NCBI GenBank assembly: GCA_016840035.1 | Contig: JAEOTC010000059.1 | Span: forward strand, 1-15,213 | DNA: 15,213 nucleotides | From: Candidatus Hodarchaeota archaeon | GTDB lineage: Archaea > Asgardarchaeota > Heimdallarchaeia > Hodarchaeales > Hodarchaeaceae | Reading direction: 5' to 3' | Shown: positions 1 to 15,213 of the stretch, piece by piece | Layout: each line of letters begins with the position of its first letter | How positions within the stretch are numbered: the stretch's first letter is position 1 | Notes under the pieces: model-generated | Told to the model about the DNA's origin: nothing | Seen by the model: only the letters and a program-made list of their open reading frames with translations | Databases searched by the model: none | Position numbers and translations under genes: made by a program

Positions 1-1
1 T

Positions 2-55
2 GATTGGCTTCAAACAAGCGGTTTGGGGGATTTACTTAAAAAATCAGAAGAATAA
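2..55 (+). CDS. 3' end of an upstream CDS, partial (…DWLQTSGLGDLLKKSEE*)
   Basis: Frame 2 is open from the window edge to TAA at 53-55 with protein-like codons. Too short to identify. Confidence 0.5.
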   Translation, partial: DWLQTSGLGDLLKKSEE

Positions 56-75
56 TTAGTATTATACTAATTATT
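51..75. repeat. Perfect 12-bp inverted repeat with 1-nt spacer (possible operator or terminator-associated element)
   Basis: AATAATTAGTAT (51-62), T, ATACTAATTATT (64-75). The arms are exact reverse complements. Confidence 0.7.
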
Positions 76-155
76 GACAAGTCCCGAATGGGGAAAAAAC
101 AAATATATCACACCTTAAGGTTTCTCACTGAAGAAAGTAATTTGGAGAATTCCGC

Positions 156-1004
156 ATGCATTTCATGTTATATCCCCCTATTTCAGTTCAAGGTTCCGTA
201 ACAAGGGAACTAAAGTTGCAAGGTATTGAAACACTTAAATCATTTACTGTGACTCCAGAAAAGATTAGCTTCACTATCAATCGTGAGGGATCTGAACAAA
301 CAATTGAAATAATTACTTTCAATTCTCCCGTTAATGATGTTAACTTCCGTATCAGTCCTGATGATGATTACCCGCTCGAATTAATGCCGATGGTTACAGT
401 AGAGTTCTTTGAAGGACTAGCACAGTTAATTGAAGGTTATACACTCATAACGGAAGTTGCTCCTGAAACTGGTTATCTTGAAGTATTCCGAGGGGATGTG
501 TACCCAATTTCTATTAGAAGAGCGGATAAAAATCTTTACGCCACTACTGCGGAATTACGTCCCTTGCGAAAAGATTACTTTGTTGCTCTCAATAATTTTC
601 TGCAAATCGATTTTGAAGAACAGCTTGAAACTTCACTAGCTACTTTTGTTGAGAATGTTCTAAATCCCATGACTACTACAATGAAGGAAGTCTTCGAATT
701 AGAAGAGAAAAAAGAACGTGAAGGGTCAGTTGTAACTGTAATCAAAGACGACTTTCATAGCTTAATTTCCCGAACGGAAGAATTAATTAGTATTGTTGAT
801 TATAACATGGATCAAACTGCTGAGCGGAATAAAGCATTTCTTCGTCTGAGTTTGCCCGTTATGCTGAAACAAGCGATTTTAGATAATATAGTTGAATATG
901 TGAAGTTTAATAATGCTGCTAATTCCATCTCATTATCAATCGAAAGTCGAAAAGAAGTTGATGCAGAGAGCCTAGCAGATTTAATTACAAAATTCTTCCA
1001 TTAA
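156..1004 (+). CDS. Hypothetical protein, 282 aa, acidic and soluble
   Basis: Long ORF with GGAGA at 144-148, 7 nt before the ATG. No family motif recognised with confidence. Confidence 0.8.
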   Translation: MHFMLYPPISVQGSVTRELKLQGIETLKSFTVTPEKISFTINREGSEQTIEIITFNSPVNDVNFRISPDDDYPLELMPMVTVEFFEGLAQLIEGYTLITEVAPETGYLEVFRGDVYPISIRRADKNLYATTAELRPLRKDYFVALNNFLQIDFEEQLETSLATFVENVLNPMTTTMKEVFELEEKKEREGSVVTVIKDDFHSLISRTEELISIVDYNMDQTAERNKAFLRLSLPVMLKQAILDNIVEYVKFNNAANSISLSIESRKEVDAESLADLITKFFH

Positions 1005-1025
1005 ATTATTTTTCTTCATCTTTTT

Positions 1026-1031
1026 AGGTGA
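1026..1031 (+). promoter_or_regulatory. Shine-Dalgarno site AGGTGA for adenine deaminase
   Basis: AGGTGA lies 5 nt before the TTG at 1037. GGTGA is the typical archaeal SD core. Confidence 0.7.
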
Positions 1032-1036
1032 TTTAA

Positions 1037-2821
1037 TTGGATATTTCATTCCTTAAAGAGTTAATTTCATGCGCAAGAGGGGAAATTCCCGCGGATATTC
1101 ATATTTTGAATGGTACACTTATCAACGTTATCACAAGGGAAACTTATCTTGCAGATATTTCGATTTATAAGAATCGAATAGCTAACGTTGCCAAACCAGG
1201 AGTTCTCGATCCACAATACTGTAAGAAGGTTATTGATGCGCGAGACAAATATATTTCACCAGGATTTATTGAATCTCATTTACATATTGAGAGCACTATG
1301 CTCCCTCCATCAGAATTTGCTAAATTAGTTGTTCCTCAGGGAACAACAACGGTAATTATGGATCCTCATGAAATTGGGAACGCATTAGGAGAAAAAGGCT
1401 TAAAATTATTATTAGATCTTGCAGAAAATCAACCTCTACGATTGTTAATCGAAATTCCCTCTTGTGTACCCGCAGCTCCAGGACTTGAAACAACTCCTTT
1501 CACAATTGATGATGAAACAGTACGAACTTTAATTCAGGATGAACCCCGTTTCTATGGATTAGGAGAAGTAATGAATTACCCGGGAGTCTTATTCAAGAAC
1601 GAAAGTGTTTTGAATAAAGTTCTCCTAGGGAAGCAACTTTCAGTAATTGATGGGCATAGCCCTGGGGTCTCAGGAAGAGACCTAGATGCCTATATTGCAA
1701 CTGGTATTAAATCCGATCATGAAAGTACAACAGGAGAAGAATTACTGGAGAAATTGAGGAAGGGCATGATAGCAATGGCGCGAGAGGGTTCTTTCGCTAA
1801 GGATCTTCATAATGTTCTGAAATTACTTAAAGACAAAGATCTTGATTTACGAAATTGTACTCTTTGTTCTGATGATAGAAATGTCATAGATCTAGTATCA
1901 AACGGTCACATGAACGCTCATGTAAGAATGGCTATTTCTGAGGGCATAGATGCGTTGACTGCAATACAAATGGTAACAATTAATGCAGCCACATACCTTA
2001 ATCTTCATAATGAGATCGGTTCAATTTCTCCTGGTAAGAAGGCCGATATCGTGTTACTGGATGATTTGAAAGAAATCAAGGTATCGTCTGTTATTTTCAA
2101 TGGAGAGGAGGTTTACACAAATAACCAACTATCATGGGAATTTGCGGATTCTACCATCCCTGATTGGGCACAAGATACAATAATTCTTCCTTCTTCTATT
2201 TCTGCGGGGGAGTTAAAAGCGAAAACATCTCTAAGAGATGGTAATTACCCCGTTAAGGTAATTGGTGTTATTCCTAATTCACTTCTAACTGATTTAAGGC
2301 AATTTAACTTAGAAGTAAGAAATGGTTGGATCCGTCCGAATCCGGAGGAGGATATTTTATCCATTTCAGTTATTGAACGATATGGAGTAAACGGAAATAT
2401 CTCAAATGCATTTATTCATGGATTTAAAATTACTGCAGAAAGGTTTGCTATGGCAACCACCGTTGCTCACGATAGTCATAACATGTTAGTAGCAGGTACA
2501 GACCATGAAACCATGGTTCAAGCTGTTAAACTTCTACAAGATATCAAAGGAGGGTATGTAGTCATTGCTGATGATAAGATTGGTAAAGTTCCACTGCCTT
2601 TTGCTGGATTAATGAGTATTCAATCATATCAAACCTTACTTCATGAATTAGAGGAAATAAACAGACTCTTTCATGATGGAGTATCAACTTTTAACGAACC
2701 ATTAATGGCTTTATCATTCATGGCACTACCAGTTATTCCACATTTAAAAATTACCGATAAGGGCCTTGTTGATGTAGATAAATTTGCATTCACGGAACTT
2801 ATTGCCGACACAAATCAATAG
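1037..2821 (+). CDS. ade: Adenine deaminase (AdeC, amidohydrolase superfamily)
   Basis: Motifs PGFIESHLHIESTM (HxH), DPHEIGN, EVMNYPGV, DGHSPG, SDHE, REGS, SDDR, GSISPGKKADIV, AHDSHN and LSFMALPVIPHLKITDKGL. Length of 594 aa is typical. Confidence 0.95.
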   Translation: MDISFLKELISCARGEIPADIHILNGTLINVITRETYLADISIYKNRIANVAKPGVLDPQYCKKVIDARDKYISPGFIESHLHIESTMLPPSEFAKLVVPQGTTTVIMDPHEIGNALGEKGLKLLLDLAENQPLRLLIEIPSCVPAAPGLETTPFTIDDETVRTLIQDEPRFYGLGEVMNYPGVLFKNESVLNKVLLGKQLSVIDGHSPGVSGRDLDAYIATGIKSDHESTTGEELLEKLRKGMIAMAREGSFAKDLHNVLKLLKDKDLDLRNCTLCSDDRNVIDLVSNGHMNAHVRMAISEGIDALTAIQMVTINAATYLNLHNEIGSISPGKKADIVLLDDLKEIKVSSVIFNGEEVYTNNQLSWEFADSTIPDWAQDTIILPSSISAGELKAKTSLRDGNYPVKVIGVIPNSLLTDLRQFNLEVRNGWIRPNPEEDILSISVIERYGVNGNISNAFIHGFKITAERFAMATTVAHDSHNMLVAGTDHETMVQAVKLLQDIKGGYVVIADDKIGKVPLPFAGLMSIQSYQTLLHELEEINRLFHDGVSTFNEPLMALSFMALPVIPHLKITDKGLVDVDKFAFTELIADTNQ

Positions 2822-2835
2822 GATGTATCAAATAT

Positions 2836-3213
2836 ATGGAAATTAAAGAGTATTGTATTTACTCCCTTGATTTCGCCTATACACGGATTTCTTCTCATAA
2901 TAATGTTGAAATAGATTTTAGAGGTATTTTAAGCTACCACACAAAGGATCTGGAATTATTCGCTCGTGTGACAAATGGTATCTTGGATCTGGACTCTGTG
3001 AACGTTTTTCTCTACTTCCAAGTTCAGCGTCATATAGATTTAATCCTTAAAGATATAAAAGAAGAAGAGATCGTAAATCAACGGCCCATTATAGTGAATC
3101 GTATAAAAATGGTAATAAGAAGGGAGTTAGAAGATATTGGCCTTGAATTCGTAAACTTCAAACAAATTTCCTTATGGAGTCATGGAGCTACCTCGAGAGG
3201 AATAGCGGCATAA
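2836..3213 (+). CDS. Stand-alone SPFH/band-7-like core domain protein, 125 aa
   Basis: SHNNVEIDFRGILSYHTKD…QVQRHIDLILKDIKEEEIVNQRPIIVNRIKMVIRRELEDIGLEFVNFKQISL follows the SPFH core pattern (TkDnv.v.v…y.v.D…lr.iig…leei…R..i…i…l…l…Gi.i..v.i). No TM segment or coiled-coil tail. Confidence 0.6.
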   Translation: MEIKEYCIYSLDFAYTRISSHNNVEIDFRGILSYHTKDLELFARVTNGILDLDSVNVFLYFQVQRHIDLILKDIKEEEIVNQRPIIVNRIKMVIRRELEDIGLEFVNFKQISLWSHGATSRGIAA

Positions 3214-3223
3214 TATCATTTTA

Positions 3224-4186
3224 CTAGTGATTTATCTCTTTCTTGATCGTTCGTACTTCAAACGCTCTCAGTTGAACCTGTTCTACACTTGGAGAATATT
3301 TATGATGCCCCTGTGATTCCACATAATATGAAGCGAGTGAGGCAGCTAATTTTGCGGTTTCCTCAATGGGATTCTTATTTGATACTCCATAAATTAATCC
3401 TGCGTAAAATGCATCTTGCCAACCATTGACAGTAATTTCATCAGTGATAGGTCCATCAGTGACCTTAATCTTTTGGTTTTTTGAGTAAACTACTACTTTC
3501 GACCGTGATTCCATTGAAATTATATATTTGAGTCTGGGAAATTTGATTAGGAAATCAGAACGAGATTCTTTAGCCTTTTTTTCAAGTATTTGCAGCTCTT
3601 CCTCATTGCAGACAAAGATTGACACTGTTTCTAGAAGTTGAGAGAATCTCCATTGAGAGATTTCCCTTATATTCCCATCAGGGGAATAAACAATGGGTAT
3701 GTTCTTGTTTGTGTCATGGATGAAATTAAGAAACTTTACATCAGCTTCAACTTTGCCAGTTCCAACAAATACAACCTTTAATTTTTCCAATACTTCAGTT
3801 GGGAATATATTTTCCAATGAATACTCTGCAAGATAATTATAGCAGTTATCCTGTTGTAGGGCTATGTAATTATCATTATTATCAGTTAAATGAAAATTAC
3901 AGGCAGTTTCTCTTTCCTCATCATGAAACAATTTTAATTTCACCCCTAACTGTTCAAAATAGGGTTTTAAGTTCCATTCAAAATCTTTACCAACAATTGA
4001 AGTAAGAACAGGGGAACTACCAAGTACAGTTAACCCATAAACAATATTAGAAGCCATTCCATCATATTCTCTATACGCATTTCCAGCTTGATGTACATCC
4101 GATTCAGTAAGGGCTGAAAAATCTGTCAAAACTCTAAAATGTAATTTATTTGCCACTTTTCCGATTACTAAAATTTCAGAATTCAT
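3224..4186 (-). CDS. PfkB/ribokinase-fold protein (nucleoside-kinase-like) with degenerate catalytic motifs
   Basis: GMASNIVYGLTVLG, SIVGKDF, CNEEE and DAFYAGLIYG…AKLAASLAS match the PfkB layout. The canonical DTTGAGD reads TVNGWQD. Confidence 0.8.
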   Translation of the reverse strand: MNSEILVIGKVANKLHFRVLTDFSALTESDVHQAGNAYREYDGMASNIVYGLTVLGSSPVLTSIVGKDFEWNLKPYFEQLGVKLKLFHDEERETACNFHLTDNNDNYIALQQDNCYNYLAEYSLENIFPTEVLEKLKVVFVGTGKVEADVKFLNFIHDTNKNIPIVYSPDGNIREISQWRFSQLLETVSIFVCNEEELQILEKKAKESRSDFLIKFPRLKYIISMESRSKVVVYSKNQKIKVTDGPITDEITVNGWQDAFYAGLIYGVSNKNPIEETAKLAASLASYYVESQGHHKYSPSVEQVQLRAFEVRTIKKEINH

Positions 4187-4226
4187 TTTTCTTGTTCACG
4201 TCATTCCTATTTCTGAAAGCTGAATA

Positions 4227-5117
4227 TTAGCTTGATCTAACAAGAATACTCGCATATCCGACCGTGTACCCTCCTCCTGGTCTGATATCAGTACTATTTG
4301 CATATTTTAAAACTTCTACTGAAGGTGTTCCAAGTTCCTTTGCAGTTTGAATAAGTGTGAAAATTGGTGCATACCCACACATTGTCATCCTAATCTTTTG
4401 TCTAAACTTGTCGGCCTCATCAATATTCATAGATTCTAAATAGGAAAGCATCGTTTTATCATTTTTGACAACAAGTTCATAATTATGTTCGTGTGAGAAG
4501 TCGCTACTTGAAACTATCAATACTCGTTTTTCTGAGTGAGATTTAATATACTCTACCAAAAATGTTGAAAGAGTAGACACGGTGGGGTTGTAGGACTGAT
4601 CCCCAATGCAAATTGGGACAATCTTAAACTTATCCTGATACAGATATTGGAGGAATGGTAATTGGATGTCTATTGAGTGTTCATTTACATGAGCAAGTCG
4701 CTCAAATCCTATTCGATTCTGAAGTGGTCCGAAATCATATGTTTTTGCATAATTCACAAATTCGGTATCAATTCTGACCTGCCCTAGTGGATTTTGCCAA
4801 TGTCCCTCAGGATAGATTGAAATAGGTGCCCCCATGCCCTGGTGATTTGGCCCCAATATCACGACTGTATCAAGATTTTCTAGGCGTTTAAATACTTCAG
4901 CGAATCCATGAGAAGCGATAGGGCCACTATAAACGTATCCCGCATGAGGAGAGACAATTCCTAATAGATTCGGGTCAAAATCTCTATTTTCTGGATTCTC
5001 AAGGGGATCCTCGCCATATCCCCACTGTTTATCAAGAAACATATTATGTATCTGTTTTCTTAAGCCTTTTTCGGTACCTTCATACCAACTACCTGCATGT
5101 CGACTTTGTCGATTCAA
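4227..5117 (-). CDS. amrB: MEMO1 family / AmmeMemoRadiSam system protein B
   Basis: Motifs RHAGSWY, SPHAGYVYSG, ILGPNH, EHSIDIQLPFLQ, SSDFSH, TMCGYAP and VGYAS. TTG start. Confidence 0.93.
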   Translation of the reverse strand: MNRQSRHAGSWYEGTEKGLRKQIHNMFLDKQWGYGEDPLENPENRDFDPNLLGIVSPHAGYVYSGPIASHGFAEVFKRLENLDTVVILGPNHQGMGAPISIYPEGHWQNPLGQVRIDTEFVNYAKTYDFGPLQNRIGFERLAHVNEHSIDIQLPFLQYLYQDKFKIVPICIGDQSYNPTVSTLSTFLVEYIKSHSEKRVLIVSSSDFSHEHNYELVVKNDKTMLSYLESMNIDEADKFRQKIRMTMCGYAPIFTLIQTAKELGTPSVEVLKYANSTDIRPGGGYTVGYASILVRSS

Positions 5118-5142
5118 TTTTCATCCCTACTAATTGTTAAGT

Positions 5143-5640
5143 CTAGGTTCCTAATTTCTTCATAATTCTAAAATGCTTTCCTCTTTGGACACCATACTTC
5201 TCTAATATATTCTTATTTTTGTCTTTGATTGTAAAATCTCCAGTATCTTTTCTAAGATAACCGACATAAATCTTCTCTTTTCTGATTTCAAACCATAAAT
5301 GGACGAAATTTTCAAATTGAGGATCTTCTGATTTATTAATAGTAAATTTACCCAACTTTTTTCCCTCACCTGTGATTTGAAGAGCATATTCTTCTTTTGC
5401 ATCGCGTTTTACGGATTTTTTTACCCCTGGAGTAACAGATATATTACGCAATCTCTTTTCCTCTGCATCTAGATAGGAGATTGCAAGTTGAGTTGCTTCT
5501 TCTATTGCTTCTTGAGTTGAAGTAGGGTCCGTAACATTTAGTTCAAATTCAATGAATATTTCTTCTGGTTCAAATTGACGCACTTGAATTTTCCTACTCC
5601 GCCCCACGCGTTTTGGCACAACCTGCCATTTATCTTTCAT
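5143..5640 (-). CDS. Hypothetical protein, about 165 aa (start moved to ATG at 5640)
   Basis: The GTG start at 5649 in the ORF track lies inside an AGGTGA SD (5651-5646), which sits 5 nt before the in-frame ATG at 5640 (MKDKW…). No family recognised. Confidence 0.75.
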   Translation of the reverse strand: MKDKWQVVPKRVGRSRKIQVRQFEPEEIFIEFELNVTDPTSTQEAIEEATQLAISYLDAEEKRLRNISVTPGVKKSVKRDAKEEYALQITGEGKKLGKFTINKSEDPQFENFVHLWFEIRKEKIYVGYLRKDTGDFTIKDKNKNILEKYGVQRGKHFRIMKKLGT

Positions 5641-5673
5641 AACTATCACCTTTTGTTTTACTTCGAAAGAAAG

Positions 5674-5692
5674 AATATAAGAAATCTTTCTG
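5674..5692 (-). promoter_or_regulatory. Candidate archaeal BRE/TATA promoter for the 5640 gene and downstream amrB and pfkB-like genes
   Basis: The minus strand reads CAGAAAGATTTCTTATATT about 25 nt upstream of the SD. The AT-rich background weakens the signal. Confidence 0.3.
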
Positions 5693-5790
5693 TTAATAAG
5701 AACTCAAAATAATTCTTAAAGCCAAAAATTTTTCGAGGACTCGAATTATTTCTGAATAATTTCCATAAAACCATCATTACGAAAACTTTA

Positions 5791-7212
5791 TTACTCAGAT
5801 GATTGTTTGAGATCCTTCTCAAGTATCATTTCATGAATGGCTTTTGCTGCTTTTCGACCTGCTTCCATGGCTAAAATTACAGTTGCTGCACCCGTTGCTA
5901 CGTCTCCTCCACAGAAAATTCTTTCACGAGTTGTTGCTCCTGTTGCTTCATCATGCACAAATGTGCCCCACTTTGTAATTTCCAATCCATCAGTTGTTTG
6001 AGCAATTAATTGATTTGGACGTTGACCTATGGCGATAATAACCGTATCCACAGGAAAAATGAATTCTGTTTCAGGGATAGGTATTGGTCTTCTACGTCCT
6101 GATGCATCCTTTTCTCCTAAATCCATCTTCATACATTTAAGACCGACTACGTTCCCTTTGTTATCTCCAATAATTTCTAGAGGAGAGGTTAGTTCTCCTA
6201 TTACGACACCTTCTTCTTTGGCATGAATGATTTCTTCAAGACGTGCTGGGATTTCTCCTTCTGATCTCCTATATATAATATCCACCTCACGCGCACCCAA
6301 TCGTAGAGAGGTTCTAGCACAATCCATTGCAACATTTCCTGCTCCAATGACTGCAACTTTTTCTCCAATTGTAACAGGTGTATCGTAGTCTGGGAACTGA
6401 TATCCTTTTAATAAATTCACCCTAGTAAGAAATTCGTTTGCTGAAAAAACTCCATTAAAGTTTTCTCCAGGTATCCCTAGAAAATTAGGTGTTCCCGCTC
6501 CCGAGGCAACATAGACTGCATTATTATTGTAATCTCCCAAAAGCTCATTGATTGTAATAGTTCTCCCAATAAGTACATCTTTTTCAAACTTTACGCCTAA
6601 AGCCATAACAGATTCTATTTCTTCATTTACTATGGCTTTTGGCATTCTGAATTCAGGAATTCCATATGTTAGAACTCCACCATATTCGTGTAATGCTTCA
6701 TACACAGTTACTTGATGACCCAATACTGCTAATTCCGCAGCACAGGTCAATCCTGAAGGTCCAGCTCCGACAACAGCCACTTTAGATCCGAGATCTTTAG
6801 AAATATTTCTATCACCACTCTGACCCTGATCAGCAACATAGCGTTCCAGATTACCGATGGAAATAGCATTGGGATGTATACAAAATTCTTGGCATTGATT
6901 TTCTTGAGGACAAACTCGACCAGTGATTGCTGGAAGGCTATTGGTGCATAAAATGATGTCCTTTGCCCCGTTGATATCATTTTCAATGACTTTTTCTATA
7001 AATTCGGGAATCTGAACATTAACAGGACAACCTTTCACGCACCGTGGTTTTTTACATTTTAAACAGCGAGAGGCTTCTTCTAAAGCTTCTTCGGGAGTAT
7101 ATCCTAACGCAACTTCATTAAAATTGCGAATTCGTTCACGGGATTCTTGAATATCCATGTGTGTGCGTTTTTTCTTAAGTTTCTGCTTTCTTTTCTCTCG
7201 TTCATCGCTCAT
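5791..7212 (-). CDS. nfnB: NfnB/SudA-type large subunit of NADH-dependent ferredoxin:NADP+ oxidoreductase (GltD-like), copy 1
   Basis: Fe-S motifs RCLKCKKPRCVKGCPV and GRVCPQENQCQEFC; also LERYVAD, FAD motif VVGAGPSG, YGIPEFR, GAGNVAMD, YRRS (NADP) and GGDVATGAATVILAM. Lies 15 nt downstream of an nfnA-type gene. Confidence 0.9.
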   Translation of the reverse strand: MSDEREKRKQKLKKKRTHMDIQESRERIRNFNEVALGYTPEEALEEASRCLKCKKPRCVKGCPVNVQIPEFIEKVIENDINGAKDIILCTNSLPAITGRVCPQENQCQEFCIHPNAISIGNLERYVADQGQSGDRNISKDLGSKVAVVGAGPSGLTCAAELAVLGHQVTVYEALHEYGGVLTYGIPEFRMPKAIVNEEIESVMALGVKFEKDVLIGRTITINELLGDYNNNAVYVASGAGTPNFLGIPGENFNGVFSANEFLTRVNLLKGYQFPDYDTPVTIGEKVAVIGAGNVAMDCARTSLRLGAREVDIIYRRSEGEIPARLEEIIHAKEEGVVIGELTSPLEIIGDNKGNVVGLKCMKMDLGEKDASGRRRPIPIPETEFIFPVDTVIIAIGQRPNQLIAQTTDGLEITKWGTFVHDEATGATTRERIFCGGDVATGAATVILAMEAGRKAAKAIHEMILEKDLKQSSE

Positions 7213-7227
7213 AATGTTCCAGACTCC

Positions 7228-9075
7228 TTAACTAGACCTTGTCATATGTTCCATGGCAATTCGTTCTTCATAGCGATAGGCCCGAGATCGCAAGGTTAAT
7301 TCATCGAAGTCAACCTTTAATCCATCGAAATTTGGTCCATCTACGCATGCAAACTTCACCTTCCCACCCACAGTAACGCGACAGGCTCCGCACATACCTG
7401 TTCCATCAACCATCAAAGGTGCTAGAGATACTATGGTTGGAATATTGTGTTTCTTTGTAAAATTCACTACTGCTCTCATCATTGGTATAGGGCCAACCGC
7501 AACAACATGGTCGAATTTTCTTCCTTCATCAATGAATTTCTTCAATAAATCTAATCCAAATCCATGATGACCCAAAGTCCCATCATCTGTAGCGATATGC
7601 AACTCATCACTGGCAGAATTCATATCATCTTGACAGATAAGAAGAGAACCTGTTCGAGCAGAGATGATACTTACGATATAATTGCCTTTCTCCCTCATTG
7701 CTTTTGTTTTTGGCAATACTGGGGCAACACCACATCCTCCTCCTAGTACTGCCACGGTGCCCCATTTCTCAATTTTTACAGGTTCACCAAGAGGCCCCAA
7801 TAGGTTTAAAATGTGATCTCCCGTGTCTAATTTACCCATCAACTTAGTACTTTTCCCAATTTTCTGAAAAATAAGAGTAATAGTTCCTGCATCTCTATCA
7901 AAATCAGCAACAGTGAGAGGAATCCTTTCACCATAATCTACTACACGGAGGATAACGAATTGACCAGGTTGACATTTTTCAGCAATTCGTGGAGCATCAA
8001 CAACCCACTTTATAATTTCGGGAGAAAGGTCGACTTTTTCGATTATTTTACTTTCTCCTTCGATAAATCTCTGGGCCAACACTGCAGTAATTTTTTCTGG
8101 TTCCTTTTCACTTTCTACTTTTTCTAAATCTGTAAGATATTTTGAAATTTGCATCGCTGCTGTCTGTCCTTCTGCAGCATCAATCCCCACTATTGAATCT
8201 CCTCTCGTCGCACTTCCCGCAGCAAATACTCCTTGTAAATTTGTATCTTGTTTTGCAGAATTAATTATTATTTTTCCTTCAGGAGTAACAGCTAATCCCG
8301 CATTCATGAATAATTCCCTATTTTTTATCTTGCTACTTAGAATGACCACAGTTTCAGTGGAGATAGAAACTCTTTCCCCAGTAGGGCTCTTTAAATTCAC
8401 TTTTTTAATCTTTATATCTCCCTCGAATGAAATAACTTCGTGTTGGAATCGAATATTTACAAAACTCTCATTTAACCTTCTTAACAGGGCTGGATGAGCA
8501 TCAAATGCATTTCTAGCTGTAATTAAACAGACATGTGCACCAACCGAATCATAATGCAACGCATTACGAACGGCCCATGAGTTGTGACCAATTATCGCAA
8601 CATTTTTCTCTTCATATTCACCTTCTGGAGGATTATTGTAGTAAATACCTTTTGAACGGTATTTTCTTTCTCCTGGAACATTGAGCTTCTTCGGATGTAA
8701 TCCAGTGGCAATAAGTACTGTTTTCCCTTCGTACATAATCTCTTCTGAGAAAAATTCACCCCTAACTACAGTTGAGTACACCCGTTTTATGTTTCCTTCC
8801 AGCTCAAACCGACTAACTTTTTCTGCATATCGGATTGTTGCCTTGTATTTCGCCTGACGTGCCATTTTATCAAGTAGTTCTTGACGTGTTATGCTAAAAA
8901 ACCCTGGATAGCCATCGACCATCATACTACCAGCGGTAGCAGATCCAGATCTAGCCTCAAGAACAAGAACACTTCGACCTAATTCAGCCGCGCGAATTGC
9001 ACAAGAAAGTCCAGCAGGACCGCCTCCCACACATATGACATCCCATATTTTTGATTCCAACAGATTTTGCTCCAA
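7228..9075 (-). CDS. nfnA: Fusion of an N-terminal thioredoxin-reductase-like flavoprotein domain (no CxxC) and a C-terminal NfnA/SudB (PyrK-like FAD/[2Fe-2S]) domain
   Basis: Residues ~10-316 carry DVICVGGGPAGLSCA, YPGF, LIATG and TNLQGVFAAG. Residues ~342-615 carry QPGQFVILRV, ERIPLTVAD, GPLG, GGGCGVAP, MVDGTGMCGACRV and CVDGP. The frame is continuous. Confidence 0.88.
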   Translation of the reverse strand: MEQNLLESKIWDVICVGGGPAGLSCAIRAAELGRSVLVLEARSGSATAGSMMVDGYPGFFSITRQELLDKMARQAKYKATIRYAEKVSRFELEGNIKRVYSTVVRGEFFSEEIMYEGKTVLIATGLHPKKLNVPGERKYRSKGIYYNNPPEGEYEEKNVAIIGHNSWAVRNALHYDSVGAHVCLITARNAFDAHPALLRRLNESFVNIRFQHEVISFEGDIKIKKVNLKSPTGERVSISTETVVILSSKIKNRELFMNAGLAVTPEGKIIINSAKQDTNLQGVFAAGSATRGDSIVGIDAAEGQTAAMQISKYLTDLEKVESEKEPEKITAVLAQRFIEGESKIIEKVDLSPEIIKWVVDAPRIAEKCQPGQFVILRVVDYGERIPLTVADFDRDAGTITLIFQKIGKSTKLMGKLDTGDHILNLLGPLGEPVKIEKWGTVAVLGGGCGVAPVLPKTKAMREKGNYIVSIISARTGSLLICQDDMNSASDELHIATDDGTLGHHGFGLDLLKKFIDEGRKFDHVVAVGPIPMMRAVVNFTKKHNIPTIVSLAPLMVDGTGMCGACRVTVGGKVKFACVDGPNFDGLKVDFDELTLRSRAYRYEERIAMEHMTRSS

Positions 9076-9283
9076 TCATTCCTGATATCATGAAACAGTA
9101 CGCATTAAAATAGCGATCTAGTTGAACAATGGTTATTGTCGCTCAATTATTGCGATAAACGATGAAGTATTTAATTGATATTCTCGTTCACAATCATGAA
9201 TATACCAAGATTTTTGAAGTTAAAACATAAAAAGAACGTAATAAGATCGAATTTGACCAATTTGATTTTTCGTAAGCAATCAC

Positions 9284-10252
9284 TTGATGGCAGCAAATAC
9301 AATGAAGATAGATCCATTTAGTACAAAATCTATGGTGCTGGAAAAATCACCCGAGACACGATCATTTTCGTCAAGCTTGATTGGATTTTACTTATGCTCT
9401 TTCGACACAACATATGGACTACAGATTCTCTACACAATACCACCAAGCTTACGCAAAAGCTCCGAAGAACATGACATTTTGAAGACGCATTATATATGGA
9501 AAGTTGAACATATCCCCATGCGCATAGATCTCAAGATTTCAGAGTTTATTTATTCTGCTCTTCAGCTACATGAATCAGACCCACAATCACCAGATGTATC
9601 AGCTACTGTAGAAAAGCCTATCTTCGGAATTGTATTCAAAATTTGGAAGGATGGTGAGTTAATTCATCCAGATGCTCTTGATCAATTTCGAAATGATCTC
9701 CAACTCGATTATTACTCCGATATAGAACTCCTATATAAACGGCAAATTTTAAAGCTAAATCCAGCGAAGCGACGAAAATATTTACAGCTCGCAGATAAAG
9801 CAGCAGAGATCGGGAAGTTCCTCAAATCTGAGTGGGAAAACCTAGTAAATAATGTTTCTAATATCGATATATTCTTTGAATCCCAAAAACTAACCTTTCC
9901 CGATTCCACTATTATATCATCAGAAAGAGAAGATCGTGAGAAGAATCTTTTTAAAATTCCAATTACTATGCGCGTATTACAAACTGAAGAGAGTAGTGAA
10001 GAAGTTTTAGTTATCTTAGTGAATCAATTGGAAACATTATTAGATGTAAAAATTAGGGTTTCAAAGAAAACCCAGTTTTTTAGTGAAAACCTTTGGGAAC
10101 AGGATCTTGAGGAATGGGCAATGAAAGAAGACATTATCCTTGAATTTCCTCGTTCATCAAAACTAGAGAGTTATATGCTAAAAATTACAAGTAAGAACCA
10201 TACTGTGGCAATTAAATCGTTAGAGATTGGCCCAGCAGATACAAAGTTATAA
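9284..10252 (+). CDS. Putative longin/uDENN-like N-terminal domain plus shared C-terminal beta-sandwich domain (paralog A)
   Basis: IGFYLCSFDTTYGLQILYTIP fits the uDENN/NPR2-type opening (hydrophobic strand-F-D/H-x3-G-x-strand-P). Aligns with the next gene at both ends. Start uncertain (TTG 9284, ATG 9287 or a later ATG). The ORF is solid; the fold call is inference. Confidence 0.65.
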   Translation: MMAANTMKIDPFSTKSMVLEKSPETRSFSSSLIGFYLCSFDTTYGLQILYTIPPSLRKSSEEHDILKTHYIWKVEHIPMRIDLKISEFIYSALQLHESDPQSPDVSATVEKPIFGIVFKIWKDGELIHPDALDQFRNDLQLDYYSDIELLYKRQILKLNPAKRRKYLQLADKAAEIGKFLKSEWENLVNNVSNIDIFFESQKLTFPDSTIISSEREDREKNLFKIPITMRVLQTEESSEEVLVILVNQLETLLDVKIRVSKKTQFFSENLWEQDLEEWAMKEDIILEFPRSSKLESYMLKITSKNHTVAIKSLEIGPADTKL

Positions 10253-10263
10253 AATAGCTACTG

Positions 10264-10276
10264 GAAAAGGTTATAT
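10264..10276 (+). promoter_or_regulatory. Candidate BRE-TATA promoter (GAAAAGG-TTATAT) upstream of paralog B
   Basis: A purine-rich BRE-like run directly precedes TTATAT in the 94-nt intergenic gap. A GGAGA SD lies just before the TTG at 10347. Confidence 0.4.
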
Positions 10277-10346
10277 CCTAAATTTCGAAATAGTAACGAA
10301 ATTGATTTGAATTTGAGAAGCTATGTAATTATTTGGAGAACTAGTT

Positions 10347-11354
10347 TTGCCGAATGGGAAAGCGAATCCAATTGATTCAATTCATTTAGAGGTCAAAGAT
10401 CGATCATTTGGTTTTTTTATATACTTTTATGACGAACTACAGGGTCATTCGCTTTTATTTACCTATCCAAAGACTCTTATGTCAAATGAAAACGAAAGGG
10501 CAATTCTAGCTATTCACCCCGCTTGGTGGCATCAAGATCAGTTTTTAAAAACTGAGAAATTTTCCACTATGGATCTTGAACTTAGTGGGGTTGTATACTC
10601 AGCTACTCTCTTTGAGTGTGAAGCTCAACGCTTGAAGAGACGATCTGGTATGAAAGCGATGAAATGGCAAAAAGAAAGGTTTATTCTTATAGTAAAAGCT
10701 CCCTCTGAAGTATCATTTATTGCTCAAGAAATTCTTCAAGAGTTTTATTCACGGATTAAAGAAGATTATAGTAAACATCTTTGTTATTTAGTTAGGTTCC
10801 AGCTCGAATCATCTGCACAAATGTCAAGTAAAGATTTCTCCCCAGAAAATGCTAAATTAGTTGAAGAAGAGCTTACTGAAATCTGTCAGTCATTATCTCC
10901 AAATACACCACTTAATAAACTCGAACCTTTTCTCCAAGAAGACGACAAGATAGAGAAACGTAAAAAATTACCAGGTTCTCCTTCTCATTCTGTTCCAAAG
11001 AAGAAGCTAAGATTCGCAATTCCAAGGAGTAAAGACACGACAGTAATCGCTCGAATTAATAATAAAGAGATTCGAGGAAGGCAAAAAACAGTAAAAATTC
11101 TATCAATAGAGCGTGGGGATGAATCTATATCAATTTCTTTAAAAAATACGTCTCCCTTTAATTTAGATAATATCACTATTCGAGTTTATGAATCACGGGG
11201 ATTCTTTGGGAAGGATAAATTAGTTAAAAAAATAAAGAATTGGCAACAGAATGAGGTATATGGACTAGATTTTAAACCTGAAGTTGAAAATGGAATAAGG
11301 TATTTGCTTAAAATAGAAGATGAAGAAGATACTTTAAAAATTAAGAGAATTTAA
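10347..11354 (+). CDS. Putative longin/uDENN-like N-terminal domain plus shared C-terminal beta-sandwich domain (paralog B)
   Basis: FGFFIYFYDELQGHSLLFTYP opening; DLELSGVVYSA matches DLKISEFIYSA in paralog A; basic/Pro linker; C-terminal IRV-x5-FF-x11-W domain. TTG start with GGAGA SD. Confidence 0.65.
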   Translation: MPNGKANPIDSIHLEVKDRSFGFFIYFYDELQGHSLLFTYPKTLMSNENERAILAIHPAWWHQDQFLKTEKFSTMDLELSGVVYSATLFECEAQRLKRRSGMKAMKWQKERFILIVKAPSEVSFIAQEILQEFYSRIKEDYSKHLCYLVRFQLESSAQMSSKDFSPENAKLVEEELTEICQSLSPNTPLNKLEPFLQEDDKIEKRKKLPGSPSHSVPKKKLRFAIPRSKDTTVIARINNKEIRGRQKTVKILSIERGDESISISLKNTSPFNLDNITIRVYESRGFFGKDKLVKKIKNWQQNEVYGLDFKPEVENGIRYLLKIEDEEDTLKIKRI

Positions 11355-11371
11355 GGAAATGGGATTTTAAT

Positions 11372-11770
11372 TTGAACGTAACACAAGTTAAAGATTTAAT
11401 GACAAAGGATTTAATCACTATTAGTGGAGAGAAAAGTGTAATTTACGCTTCAGAATTAATGATGGAAAAAAATATTGGATCTATTCTTGTTTATGACGAT
11501 TCCACAGTGATAGGAATTATAACGGAACGTGATATTGTAAGAAAAGTAATTACAGATTGTAAAGATCTATGTGATGTGAAAGCGCGAGAAATTGCTACTA
11601 AAGAAATCATCACAATCGCCCCTCAAGACACAATTGAGCACGCATTAATTACCATGTACAGAAGAAAAATTAAACGAATCCCAGTCAAAGATCCTGAATC
11701 TCATGAATTAGTAGGAATTATTACTACTCATGACATCATTGCCGCATTTAATACGTTAGAACTTAGGTAA
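11372..11770 (+). CDS. Stand-alone CBS-pair (Bateman) domain protein
   Basis: Motifs VKDLMTKDLITI, LMMEKNIGSILV, GIITERDIV, IKRIPV and LVGIITTHDII give two tandem CBS repeats in 132 aa. Confidence 0.93.
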   Translation: MNVTQVKDLMTKDLITISGEKSVIYASELMMEKNIGSILVYDDSTVIGIITERDIVRKVITDCKDLCDVKAREIATKEIITIAPQDTIEHALITMYRRKIKRIPVKDPESHELVGIITTHDIIAAFNTLELR

Positions 11771-11779
11771 AGGTTGTAT

Positions 11780-13513
11780 CTATTTTTTCACATCGTTGGC
11801 AACAATTATTTTTGACATTATCTTACCATGTAGATCATTAATGGTAAGTAGATATTCTTTTTCGTTTTTATCAATTCTTGGGCAATCAAGCTCATGTTCT
11901 TCACCAGGAGACCATCGAGGGACAGTTTTTTCCAACATAGTCGTTTCAAAGAATTCGTGTACATGAGATACTCGTATTTTAACTTGGTCAAGATCTTTAT
12001 CTGAAATATTAATAATATTGAGCTTTAAATAAACCGTATTTGGATAAATTGCAGCATGCTTCAATTCTAATGAGCCTTTAGGAACTCCAAAACTCTCAGG
12101 TGTTTCCTCAACTTGTGGAAAGAGGTCTTCATGAATAGCCGTTGCTGCTCGTCTTCCAGCACCCATTGCTGAAATCACTGTAGCAGCTCCAGTCACGATA
12201 TCCCCACCTGCATAAACATGAGGTTTACTTGTTCTTCCCATTTCATCTGTTACAATATTTCCCCATTTATTTACTTCTAAATCGGGAGTGGTCATTGTGA
12301 TTAAAGGATTGGCTTTATTTCCTATTGCTATGATAATTAAATCAGTATTAAGCACAAAATAATCCCCATCTATAGGTACAGGTCGTGCCCGACCTGATTT
12401 ATCTGGTTCACCTAGTTGATAGCGTTGGCACCTGATTGATTCAATACGTCCTTTTTCGTCACCCATAATTTCTACTGGGTTGGATAATAACTTAAATTGA
12501 ACACCTTCCTCTTCTGCGTGGTGAATTTCCTCTAATCTTGCAGGCATTTGTTCTCTAGATCTACGATATACGATATGGACATTATCAGCATCTAATCGTA
12601 AGGCAGTTCTTGCTGAATCCATAGCTACGTTTCCTCCTCCAACTACAACCACATTCTTACCCGTTAATAGGGGTGTATTATACTTAGGATAAAGATAAGC
12701 TTTCATCAAATTAGATCGTGTTAGATATTCATTCGCGGAATAGACACCCTGCAAGTTCTCTCCAGGGATATTCATGAACACAGGTAATCCAGCACCAACG
12801 CCGATATACACTGCATCATATCCATCTTCAGTAAATAATTCATCAATCCCACGAATTCTCCCAATAACAGAGTCGTATACGAACTTAACACCAGCGTTTT
12901 CTAGATTCTGAATTTCATATTGGACTACAGATTTTGGTAAACGAAATTCGGGAATTCCGTAAACAAGAACTCCTCCACCTAAATGAAACGCCTCATAGAC
13001 AGTTACTTCGTATCCTTGTTGAATCAAATCACCAGCAGTTGTTAATCCTGAGGGCCCACTACCTACAATTGCTACCTTTTTCCCATTTTTCCTCACTCGC
13101 TCTGGTTCAGGAACTTGACCAGTAAGTCGTTCATAATCTGCGACAAATCGCTCTAGATTTCCTATCCCTACTGATCTACCTTTCTTTCCTCTAACGCACA
13201 ATCCTTCGCATTGAGATTCTTGTGGACAAACACGACCACAAACAGCTGGGAGTACATTCCTTTCTTTAATTTTCCAAGCGGCCTCAAGGAACTTTCCTTC
13301 TTGAACTAATGCTATAAACTCGGGGATTGGAACACGTACAGGACATCCATCCACACATTTAGGTTTCTTACAATTCAAACATCGATTTGCTTCTTGGATA
13401 GCCATTTCTTCAGAATATCCATACGGAACTTCACGAAAATTCCTGGCCCGAACCTGAGGAGGCTGAGTTGGCATATCAGTAAAGGGAATTTGCATACGTT
13501 CCTTAGACTTCAT
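11780..13513 (-). CDS. nfnB: NfnB/SudA-type large subunit, copy 2, with an extra ~100-aa C-terminal domain
   Basis: Motifs RCLNCKKPKCVDGCPV, GRVCPQESQCEGLC, GSGPSG, GGGNVAMD, YRRS and GGDIVTGAATVISAM. The core ends near AIHEDL (residue ~464); residues ~481-577 are extra. ATGA overlap with the upstream nfnA stop. Confidence 0.9.
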   Translation of the reverse strand: MKSKERMQIPFTDMPTQPPQVRARNFREVPYGYSEEMAIQEANRCLNCKKPKCVDGCPVRVPIPEFIALVQEGKFLEAAWKIKERNVLPAVCGRVCPQESQCEGLCVRGKKGRSVGIGNLERFVADYERLTGQVPEPERVRKNGKKVAIVGSGPSGLTTAGDLIQQGYEVTVYEAFHLGGGVLVYGIPEFRLPKSVVQYEIQNLENAGVKFVYDSVIGRIRGIDELFTEDGYDAVYIGVGAGLPVFMNIPGENLQGVYSANEYLTRSNLMKAYLYPKYNTPLLTGKNVVVVGGGNVAMDSARTALRLDADNVHIVYRRSREQMPARLEEIHHAEEEGVQFKLLSNPVEIMGDEKGRIESIRCQRYQLGEPDKSGRARPVPIDGDYFVLNTDLIIIAIGNKANPLITMTTPDLEVNKWGNIVTDEMGRTSKPHVYAGGDIVTGAATVISAMGAGRRAATAIHEDLFPQVEETPESFGVPKGSLELKHAAIYPNTVYLKLNIINISDKDLDQVKIRVSHVHEFFETTMLEKTVPRWSPGEEHELDCPRIDKNEKEYLLTINDLHGKIMSKIIVANDVKK

Positions 13514-14400
13514 GATGTTTCCTCTTCCTTTGTTCTTTCAAGAAATTTAGCTAAGGAACGACACTCGGGTGAAAAATTTTGTAACCCCAATGTTTCTTCA
13601 GTAATATAGGATGTATTACGTACATGTATTAATTCCTCCCAATCAATTTTATGTGCATCGAATTCTGGTCCATCTACACAGGCAAATTTAGTTTTCCCAT
13701 CGTACGACAATCGACAACTTCCACACATTCCTGTTCCATCAACCATGATTGTGGTAACCGTTGCATATGTTGGAATACCCCCTTTCTCTTTTGTAAGCTT
13801 GGAAACTTTACTCATCATAACATTGCAGCCAATAACTTTAATATGATCTATCTCACGTTTCTGAACCTCAATCATATTATCAAGAATATCATAAATATGT
13901 CCACGCTCACCTTTTGACCCATCAGTAGTTACGAGAATTACTTCGTCACTTACAGTTTTGTATTCTTCTTCATAATAAAGGAGATTTTCATTTTTAGCTT
14001 CAATTATTGTGATTACAATATTTCCAAGTTCCTTGAGCTTCTTTGCTATTGGATATACCGCACCAACCCCATAACAACCCCCACCAAGTACAACTGTCCC
14101 AAAATTGTCAAGATATGCTGGTTCACCAAGAGGGCCGACAATACTATAGAAGCAATCTCCTTCCTCCATGAAAGCCATTTTCGAAGTGGATAATCCTAAC
14201 TCCTGAACTATAAAGGATATTGTTCCTTTTTCCTCGTCCCAATCCAGCAATGTCAAGGGAATTTTCTCTGAATGCTCATCAACCATTACTAAAATAAATT
14301 GTCCAGCTTTAGCTTTCTTGGCTATTCCAGGAACTTTGATATCTAGTTTATAGAAATTCGGTACGAATTCTTCTTTCTTAAGGATATTAAATTTGGACAT
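13510..14400 (-). CDS. nfnA: NfnA/SudB-type small subunit (FAD, [2Fe-2S]), copy 2
   Basis: Motifs KAGQFILVMV, EKIPLTLLD, GPLG, GGGCYG, TTDGSKG, MVDGTGMCGSCRL and CVDGPEF. AGGTGA SD at 14411-14406. Confidence 0.9.
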   Translation of the reverse strand: MSKFNILKKEEFVPNFYKLDIKVPGIAKKAKAGQFILVMVDEHSEKIPLTLLDWDEEKGTISFIVQELGLSTSKMAFMEEGDCFYSIVGPLGEPAYLDNFGTVVLGGGCYGVGAVYPIAKKLKELGNIVITIIEAKNENLLYYEEEYKTVSDEVILVTTDGSKGERGHIYDILDNMIEVQKREIDHIKVIGCNVMMSKVSKLTKEKGGIPTYATVTTIMVDGTGMCGSCRLSYDGKTKFACVDGPEFDAHKIDWEELIHVRNTSYITEETLGLQNFSPECRSLAKFLERTKEEETS

Positions 14401-15211
14401 CTATTTCACCTTTTCCTTTTGATTGGTTTATAGCCTGTTTAGTAGTAATATAAAGTCTGAACTCTTCCACTTTATCGGCTATAGGAACACCCATATACTC
14501 AAGACTTTGTTTCGCAACTTTTGGAATAATAATGTCGCCAGAATTTGAAATTTCATCCTTTAATTCATCAATCGTATTGTAGTTAAATCCGTCAAATCCC
14601 ATTGTATGAGCTAGTTTACTAAAGATCATCCAGCTGGGAAGAGCATCACCAGGCGGCTCAACAGCTTTGTTTATTGGGTATTTCATGTACTCCTCCCCTG
14701 ATTTAGTCCCATCCTCTTCAGTAAACACGGTGGTTGGAAGAACGACTTCAGCAAATTCAGAGGTGTCTGATTCGTAAATATTTTGAAGGATAAGGAGTTC
14801 TATACCCTTTAACTGAGAAAACAACGCTGAATCAAAAGTGGTTACAATTACTTTTATTCCTCGGGTATGTAAACTACTAATCCCTTCTTCATCATACACG
14901 ATAGGATGAGTACTGATTTTCTGTGCGAATTTTGACAAAACGAAAACAGATTCATCAGTGAGAGAGGGTGAAATCGCTATCCCAATTTCTTCTGGTTTAT
15001 ATTCTTTAAGCAAATTAGCAGTATGTGATATTGCCTCCTCCCAAGAAACAGGGTGTTGTTCCTCTTTTATCAATTTACGTTTGATAGTAGGGTATTTCAG
15101 CCGATCACGACTATTAACTAAAGCGGGAATACAAAAACGTCCTTTAACACAGTATTCACGACGAGCAGATAATTCATATGGAGGATGTACGTTTACAACT
15201 TTATCCCATTT
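14387..15211 (-). CDS. NuoG/FdhA-like (molybdopterin-oxidoreductase fold) Fe-S subunit, 5'-partial and internally shortened
   Basis: The frame stays open past the track's 15073 start to the window edge: KWDKVVNVHPPYELSARREYCVKGRFCIPALVNSRDRLKYPTIKRK…VSWEEA. This shows CxKGRF, RLxxP and SWEEA; later LLILQNIYESDTSEFAEVVLP…EEDGT and AVEPPGDALPSWMIF. Overlaps nfnA by 14 nt. Confidence 0.8.
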   Translation of the reverse strand, partial: KWDKVVNVHPPYELSARREYCVKGRFCIPALVNSRDRLKYPTIKRKLIKEEQHPVSWEEAISHTANLLKEYKPEEIGIAISPSLTDESVFVLSKFAQKISTHPIVYDEEGISSLHTRGIKVIVTTFDSALFSQLKGIELLILQNIYESDTSEFAEVVLPTTVFTEEDGTKSGEEYMKYPINKAVEPPGDALPSWMIFSKLAHTMGFDGFNYNTIDELKDEISNSGDIIIPKVAKQSLEYMGVPIADKVEEFRLYITTKQAINQSKGKGEIDVQI

Positions 15212-15213
15212 AA

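Follow-up and report, generated by a model that had tools for sequence, protein, structure and literature searches.

A thioredoxin reductase-like domain that has lost its disulfide and NADPH motifs is fused to NfnA in one family of Asgard archaea

Results

We analyzed a 15,213-nucleotide stretch of DNA from a Candidatus Hodarchaeota archaeon (NCBI GenBank assembly GCA_016840035.1, contig JAEOTC010000059.1, positions 1 to 15,213 of the forward strand), henceforth referred to as the window. One gene on its reverse strand (7228..9075, stop codon included) encodes a thioredoxin reductase (TrxR)-like domain, a linker and NfnA, the small, NAD-side subunit of the NADH-dependent ferredoxin:NADP+ oxidoreductase Nfn. 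The fusion is genuine, is limited to a single Asgard (Hodarchaeales-type) family and evolves under purifying selection, and it is an undescribed architecture for Nfn. The TrxR-like domain keeps the fold of its parent family and has lost both CxxC and the motifs for NADPH (nicotinamide adenine dinucleotide phosphate in its reduced form). On the NfnA side of the enzyme it may now provide a third redox port of a non-nicotinamide kind.

The layout of the gene was defined by translation, Pfam and NCBIfam, and its features, like nfnB, lie on the reverse strand. The open reading frame (ORF) is uninterrupted by stops and yields 615 residues by translation when it is read from the TTG at 9075, directly after an in-frame TGA. 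A second TTG at residue 6 would give a protein of 610 residues that begins with MESKIWD, matching the orthologue P0004. The TrxR-fold domain (residues 10-324, 8104..9048) consists of a flavin adenine dinucleotide (FAD) subdomain (residues 10-120 and 248-318) and a former NADPH/disulfide subdomain (residues 121-247, 8335..8715). A variable linker of about 18 residues (325-342, 8050..8103) leads into the NfnA/NfnS domain (residues 343-615, 7231..8049), which has an FAD barrel, GGGCGVAP in its NAD domain and, for the [2Fe-2S] cluster, the Asp-Cys3 motif DGTGMCGACRV...FAC. The partner gene nfnB (5791..7212) starts 15 nt past the stop of the fusion, is preceded by GGAG, and encodes 473 residues (P0002) with Fer4_20 and Pyr_redox_2 domains.

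The N-terminal domain aligns over its full length with TrxRs. TIGR01292 covers residues 11-314 full-length (E 9e-46), although its score of 156 bits is below the cut-off of 343.45 bits, and in a phmmer search against the PDB residues 10-315 align end to end with residues 14-316 of M. tuberculosis TrxR (2a87, E 2e-25). Identity to any TrxR is at most 36%. The alignment with 2a87 agrees with the motif assignments of the original prediction, which a model had made from the letters of the window without database searches. The elements said to bind FAD are retained as GGGPAG, IATG and GVFAAG; the first of these, the dinucleotide (FAD-ADP) motif GGGPAG (9010..9027), has G17, G18, G19 and G22 invariant in 29 orthologues. 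CATC of 2a87 stands opposite NNPP, the predicted substitute for CxxC, whose position (8626-8637) was checked by translation. The NADPH motif, HRR and GD had likewise been described as replaced, and the alignment places GGGDSA opposite GHNSWA, HRRDEFRAS opposite TARNAFDAH, and AAGD opposite AAGS.

We computed conservation across the 29 orthologues and found that each of the lost sites carries a conserved motif of its own. At the lost CxxC site (8614..8649, GIYYNNPPEGEY), NNPP itself is restricted to the subclade of the window; the family consensus is G-[VI]-Y-Y-[SN]-[LP]-P-x-G-D-Y, in which G143 and P150 are invariant and Y146 is nearly so. The lost GxGxxA site (8548..8589, GHNSWAVRNALHYD) reads G-H-[TN]-S-W-A in 29/29 orthologues, within the longer motif G-H-[TN]-S-W-A-V-R-N-A-L-H-Y-D, where G163, W167, R170 and D176 are invariant and H164, A168, N171 and H174 are at least 90% conserved. 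At the lost HRRxxxR site (8461..8520, TARNAFDAHPALLRRLNESF), HRR has become T-x-[RK], again in 29/29, and the new motif is D-A-H-P-A-L-L-R-R-L-N-E-S-F with H194, P195, R199, S204 and F205 invariant. In the C-terminal FAD motif GVFAAGS...GDS (8185..8232), the usual GD is GS and the consensus G-V-F-A-A-G-S-A-T-R-G-D-S has S288 and D293 invariant. None of the cysteines of the N-terminal domain is conserved (the commonest, C25, is found in 21/29 orthologues), which by sequence rules out disulfide-reductase activity for the domain. All 29 have lost the glycine in the middle of GxGxxA along with two of the three arginines for the NADPH phosphate, so the usual NAD(P)H binding appears to have been lost too.

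Mean pairwise identity among the orthologues is 0.75 and 0.69 for the two halves of the FAD subdomain and 0.60 for the former NADPH/disulfide subdomain, in which 39 of the 127 positions are at least 90% conserved. NfnA reaches 0.78, whereas the linker has only 0.35. The pattern indicates that the N-terminal domain is a working domain with a changed job and is not decaying.

We compared the fused domain with characterized enzymes of the same fold. It shares with low-molecular-weight TrxR (TrxB, TIGR01292) the two-Rossmann fold end to end and the GxGxxG, ATG and G-x-F-A-A-G motifs; a homodimer model of it, which may reflect solved TrxR dimers, pairs the FAD subdomains. The fused domain is without CxxC or any conserved cysteine, and G-H-[TN]-S-W-A, T-x-R and GS replace the TrxB motifs. 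TrxR-type ferredoxin:NADP+ reductases (FNRs), such as B. subtilis YumC (3LZW) and B. cereus FNR2 (6GAS), also have a TrxR fold without CxxC and match at E about 1e-20; they, however, retain GGGDxA and HRR and use NADPH, and the fused domain has lost both motifs. In FFTR, DTR, DDOR and the deazaflavin-dependent TrxR the NADPH cavity motifs of the TrxR fold are lost, as they are in the fused domain. DDOR keeps the disulfide yet does not reduce thioredoxin. The fused domain differs from FFTR, DTR and DDOR in that it is without the disulfide, has no C-terminal tail free and is covalently joined to NfnA. The NADPH-independent TrxR-fold enzymes without NADPH cavity motifs draw their electrons from ferredoxin or, in methanogens, from F420; in FFTR and DTR the redox-active disulfide is retained and thioredoxin is reduced (PMC8154056).

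A structural model of the fusion was built with AlphaFold2 (AF2). An alignment of only the 29 fusion orthologues yielded a model of low quality, with a predicted local distance difference test score (pLDDT) of 69 and a predicted template modelling score (pTM) of 0.41, and was replaced by a composite alignment, with which both domains are well modelled (mean pLDDT 87.8, overall pTM 0.55) and pLDDT is <50 over linker residues 325-338. The best Foldseek matches of the N-terminal half are TrxRs in the flavin-reducing (FR) conformation (TMt 0.85-0.86, rmsd about 3 Å), including 5mh4 and 3cty, the T. acidophilum enzyme, which is NADPH-independent. TrxRs in the FO state and TrxR-type FNRs match more weakly (TMt 0.56-0.64). 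The C-terminal half matches P. furiosus NfnI-S with a TMt of 0.89.

The distribution of the fusion was assessed at two scales. A word-indexed search over 5.8 billion proteins, with the fusion as query, retrieved about 70 clusters of 600-650 residues from NCBI, JGI, ENA and Logan sources that share the TrxR-like plus NfnA architecture at 59-100% identity. The source names of these clusters are Hodarchaeales, Heimdallarchaeota and 'Promethearchaeota', with single cases of Thor- or Odinarchaeota, and the next matches are ordinary NfnA-NfnB fusions that cover just 43% of the query. We also searched the N-terminal domain at E ≤ 1e-50 in 400 species-representative genomes of the Asgard phylum. It was found in 19 of the 21 further members of the window's family, and the other 379 Asgard genomes gave no match. 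The original prediction had feared a stop or frameshift at the junction; there is none, and the fusion is an unbroken ORF of 585-697 residues in 20 genomes, single-contig assemblies among them.

Nor did the second fear expressed there, that the architecture had already been characterized, come true. A 2019 survey of Nfn architectures recognizes only patterns A-D, namely split, A-B fused, B-A fused and the diplomonad form, and the TrxR-like domain is absent from all of them (PMC6405883). The fused patterns B, C and D have NfnA and NfnB in one chain (PMC6405883), whereas here the N-terminal domain is without Fer4_20 and NfnB is a separate gene. Full-text searches of the literature found the TrxR-NfnA fusion described nowhere. 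We considered whether the N-terminal domain could be a degenerate copy of NfnB, as in B-A fused Nfn, and rejected this origin, as the TrxR model scores 156 bits full-length versus 50 bits for a partial match to gltA. In public records the fusion is named 'sulfide/dihydroorotate dehydrogenase-like FAD/NAD-binding protein' or 'ferredoxin--NADP+ reductase', and these names should mention the extra TrxR-like domain.

The C-terminal half and the linker fit the earlier description of a linker joined to an intact NfnA. Residues 343-613 score 382 bits against NF004862 (sulfide/dihydroorotate dehydrogenase-like FAD/NAD-binding; cut-off 220), and residues 343-615 match P. furiosus NfnI-S (5jca_S residues 9-279) full-length with 309 bits and about 52-57% identity, versus 195 bits to the NAD-independent Xfn small subunit. 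The [2Fe-2S] motif DGTGMCGACRV plus FAC is aligned with that of 5jca_S and is invariant across the 29 orthologues, and the GGGxGxAP motif of the NAD domain is kept. NfnB (P0002) scores 551.6 bits on TIGR01316 (cut-off 471.75), and nfnB adjoins the fusion gene in every relative locus examined (L001, L002 and L003). The NfnB orthologues form a tight clade of their own at 72-92% identity, after which identity drops to at most 60%. These matches identify the gene product as the NAD-side small subunit of an NfnI-type enzyme whose partner is the downstream NfnB. It is also the organism's most canonical Nfn, because it matches NfnI-S and keeps the motifs, and because the genome's sole other NfnA-like gene, a copy in the second operon of the window, is merely 42% identical. 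The gene is thus like NfnI in the whole length of residues 343-615, in the Asp-Cys3 and GGGxGxAP motifs and in the position of nfnB; it differs in about 340 extra N-terminal residues, which make up a second flavoprotein-type domain of TrxR fold.

We modelled the N-terminal domain as a homodimer, using two copies of residues 1-324 and two FAD, together with three controls. The model reached an ipSAE of 0.60 (runs 0.57-0.62) versus 0.00 for the best of the controls, a result that may reflect solved TrxR dimers; contacts agree at ≥ 91% and pLDDT is 86-87. In calibration the pass mark was reached by 20 out of 30 solved homo-pairs and by 1 out of 23 single chains. The predicted interface (residues 20-32, 54-60, 67-77, 274 and 295-305) is the FAD-subdomain surface of TrxR dimers. 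Positions that are at least 90% conserved account for 17 of its 28 residues versus 105 of the 287 in the rest of the domain (p 0.015). The new motifs in the former NADPH subdomain stay clear of the interface, a single contact at H194 excepted. One of the options offered by the original prediction was a non-catalytic dimerization module; the model speaks for dimerization, while the non-catalytic part of that option is weighed in the Discussion. The solved Nfn enzymes are known as AB heterodimers. Unlike them, the enzyme is probably, on the strength of this model, a dimer of heterodimers, (A'B)2, in which flexible tethers of about 18 residues link the A'B units to a TrxR-like dimer at the center.

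The relatives of the N-terminal domain were sought with an exhaustive HMMER search of 1.84 billion representatives. The fusion representative scores 364 bits, the next matches are ordinary TrxR-like proteins of about 310 residues that reach 142 bits (35% identity), and short matches with >70% identity are fragments of the fusion; at the sequence level, the domain is without a close standalone homologue. A maximum-likelihood tree groups the 29 fused domains into a single clade (SH-aLRT 96). The standalone TrxR-fold protein P0276 (313 residues, L007 6001-6942) is placed as its sister with a support of 99, a placement that we regard as provisional because the branch is very long. P0276 reads GSGSWAVRN and has the SWAVRN motif within it, together with H-x-x-L-x-x-R-L-x-x-S-F, in common with the fused domain, and a second standalone protein, P0246 (305 residues, L008 6001-6918), has less in common with it. 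Both are without CxxC and GD. They differ from the fused domain in that they are only 26-34% identical to it, are monocistronic and lie away from nfn genes. Both are surrounded by Arf/Ras-type GTPase genes, thermosome genes adjoin P0276, and ribosomal S26e is near P0246, contexts that look Asgard-like. A search for P0276 at E ≤ 1e-40 gave no match in the 400 Asgard genomes.

The genome that the window comes from carries three further TrxR-fold paralogues on separate contigs, the fused domain being the fourth. One is a canonical TrxR with GVSYCATCDG, GGGNSA, HRRDQLRA and CGD, so the motifs used for comparison are real in this organism. Another is a TrxR-type FNR-like protein that is without CxxC and has GGGDTA and HRR intact. 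With these two encoded separately, the fused domain would not be needed for TrxR or FNR roles, and it is the only one of the four that misses both CxxC and the NADPH motifs. The remaining paralogue (G000:C292:2160-3068; L006 107-1090) has CATC intact and GAGDVA instead of GGGxxA, and HRR is missing. This may be a thioredoxin reductase of the NADPH-independent (DTR/FFTR-like) kind.

Several features of the surrounding DNA were recorded. A second Nfn-like operon at 11780-15211 of the window (reverse strand) comprises a molybdopterin-oxidoreductase-like ORF that is open at the window end, NfnA2 (296 residues, the copy 42% identical to the fused NfnA) and NfnB2 (577 residues), in which the Pfam domains stop near residue 453 and about 120 C-terminal residues lie beyond. 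Divergent from the fusion operon, at 9284-11770 on the forward strand, are ORFs of 322 and 335 residues, for which Pfam, NCBIfam and PHROGs gave no match, followed by a CBS-pair protein. The same trio adjoins the fusion in the closed genome CP070695 (L001 5075-7613) and is followed there by an FrhB-like gene. Downstream of nfnB, P0243 (5143-5649, reverse strand) is a lysine-rich protein of 168 residues that is syntenic in at least 14 family genomes, with 1-2 paralogues per genome. We rejected it as a third subunit or redox partner: it is present in two genomes that are without the fusion and absent from two that have it, it has paralogues elsewhere, and it has neither cysteines nor a family match. 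The region 1037-5117 holds housekeeping neighbors, namely adenine deaminase (1037-2821, forward strand), a PfkB-family kinase (3224-4186, reverse strand) and an AmmeMemoRadiSam system protein B/Memo-like gene (4227-5117, reverse strand), whose synteny is conserved with CP070695.

Elsewhere in the genome, CofD scores above its cut-off, and the genome appears able to make F420. Two CofD matches of near-equal score are located on small contigs (G000:C249:143-1039 and G000:C195:752-1648); they could represent duplication, strain heterogeneity or assembly redundancy.

Discussion

Our preferred reading, to which we assign a probability of roughly 45%, is that the N-terminal domain is a third, non-nicotinamide redox (flavin) port on the NfnA side. 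The domain would pair with its own copy through the FAD subdomain, as TrxRs do and as the homodimer model predicts, so that two A'B units would be tethered by the linkers to a central TrxR-like dimer. It would still bind FAD, which is suggested because the ADP-binding motifs are kept. The surroundings of the isoalloxazine and the old NADPH/CxxC face would have been rebuilt into an invariant basic/aromatic surface (H164, W167, R170, H174, H194-P195 and R199), and electrons would move between the flavin and a partner that is not itself a pyridine nucleotide, for example a ferredoxin- or flavodoxin-like protein, or F420. We prefer this reading because there are precedents for NADPH-independent enzymes of the TrxR fold (FFTR/DTR and the deazaflavin TrxR) and because the genome has CofD. 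The other option of the original prediction, an extra flavin relay, may hold: the retained ADP-binding motifs and the new invariant residues of the former NADPH subdomain speak for it, and the AF2 model, which predicts no fixed contact with NfnA, speaks against it. The re-routing of the high-potential branch that was suggested there is speculative.

Several observations weigh against a redox role. No substrate is obvious for a flavin that lacks both a disulfide and a nicotinamide site, and ferredoxin and F420 are candidate partners by analogy only. An FrhB-like gene adjoins the fusion operon in one relative (CP070695) but was searched for and not found in this 87%-complete genome. AF2 gives no confident packing of the N-terminal domain on NfnA (pTM 0.55, linker pLDDT <50) and hence no electron path. 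Several polar residues that contact the flavin in TrxRs such as the E. coli enzyme are changed (GGQL to AGSM, VEN to VDG and GD to GS), and FAD binding could be altered or lost given these changes. The passing homodimer model may also owe its score to the model's memory of solved TrxR dimers, because the predicted interface is the surface that known TrxR dimers use.

Two other readings accept that the domain works and give it a different job. Second in our approximate ranking, and to be thought of as a less probable but serious alternative, is that of a pure scaffold or pseudoenzyme, which would dimerize or organize two NfnA'B units, with any FAD being structural and no electrons transferred. 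The loss of all catalytic motifs of the parent family agrees with it, as do the passing homodimer model with an interface enriched in conserved residues and the flexible tether, on which no docking to NfnA is predicted. A mere scaffold, however, would not need the conserved face of the former NADPH/disulfide subdomain: more than a quarter of its positions (39/127) are at least 90% conserved, and the new motifs (GH[TN]SWAVRNALHYD and DAHPALLRRLNESF) lie outside the predicted interface. The standalone P0276, moreover, has the same motifs though it is unattached to NfnA. We think it rather improbable, and place it third, that the domain is a sensor or regulator, in which the rebuilt pocket would bind a metabolite or nucleotide, or the flavin would sense redox state or O2, and gate Nfn via the tether. 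The old NADPH site is now an invariant basic/aromatic pocket, the divergent neighbor cluster with its CBS-pair protein is conserved in the window and in the closed genome of a relative, and these archaea belong to a group reported as oxygen-exposed. Against it, Pfam and NCBIfam recognize no known ligand-binding signature in the N-terminal domain, and in the most divergent of the loci examined the fusion has no CBS gene next to it.

The remaining explanations find little room. It is very improbable that the domain continues to work as a TrxR or as a TrxR-type FNR by means of unconventional residues. The full fold and the FAD-ADP motifs are kept, and TrxR-type FNRs in the PDB score only slightly below TrxRs, but conserved cysteines number zero, the NADPH-site glycine and arginines are lost in every orthologue, the TIGR01292 score (156 bits) is far from the cut-off (343), and the motifs are intact in the canonical TrxR and the FNR-like paralogue that the genome encodes besides. 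An artefact of assembly or gene calling, or a dead and decaying TrxR fused to nfnA, might be suspected in an assembly of 293 contigs and 87% completeness, and from the lost catalytic motifs themselves. It is refuted for practical purposes by the unbroken ORF in 20 genomes, by the roughly 70 protein clusters and by a domain far more conserved than the linker behind it.

The third redox port can be extended into a more specific and distinctly more doubtful proposal, that of a three-flavin Nfn. In the archaeal family of the window, the bifurcating NfnAB core would be connected, through an FAD of TrxR origin, with a third partner from outside the pyridine nucleotides (ferredoxin/flavodoxin, F420 or other), within an (A'B)2 assembly. 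If true, this would be a new architecture and a new coupling mode of flavin-based electron bifurcation, and the N-terminal domain would define a new functional class, a TrxR-fold protein with neither a disulfide nor an NAD(P)H site.

Flavin-based electron bifurcation has its simplest model in Nfn, which is also a main valve between the NADH, NADPH and ferredoxin pools, and Hodarchaeales-type Asgard archaea are currently placed nearest to eukaryotes. If the N-terminal domain is a dimerizer only, it would still be an example of a flavoenzyme recycled as a scaffold; if it is redox-active, it would add a new entry or exit to the bifurcating enzyme of these archaea.

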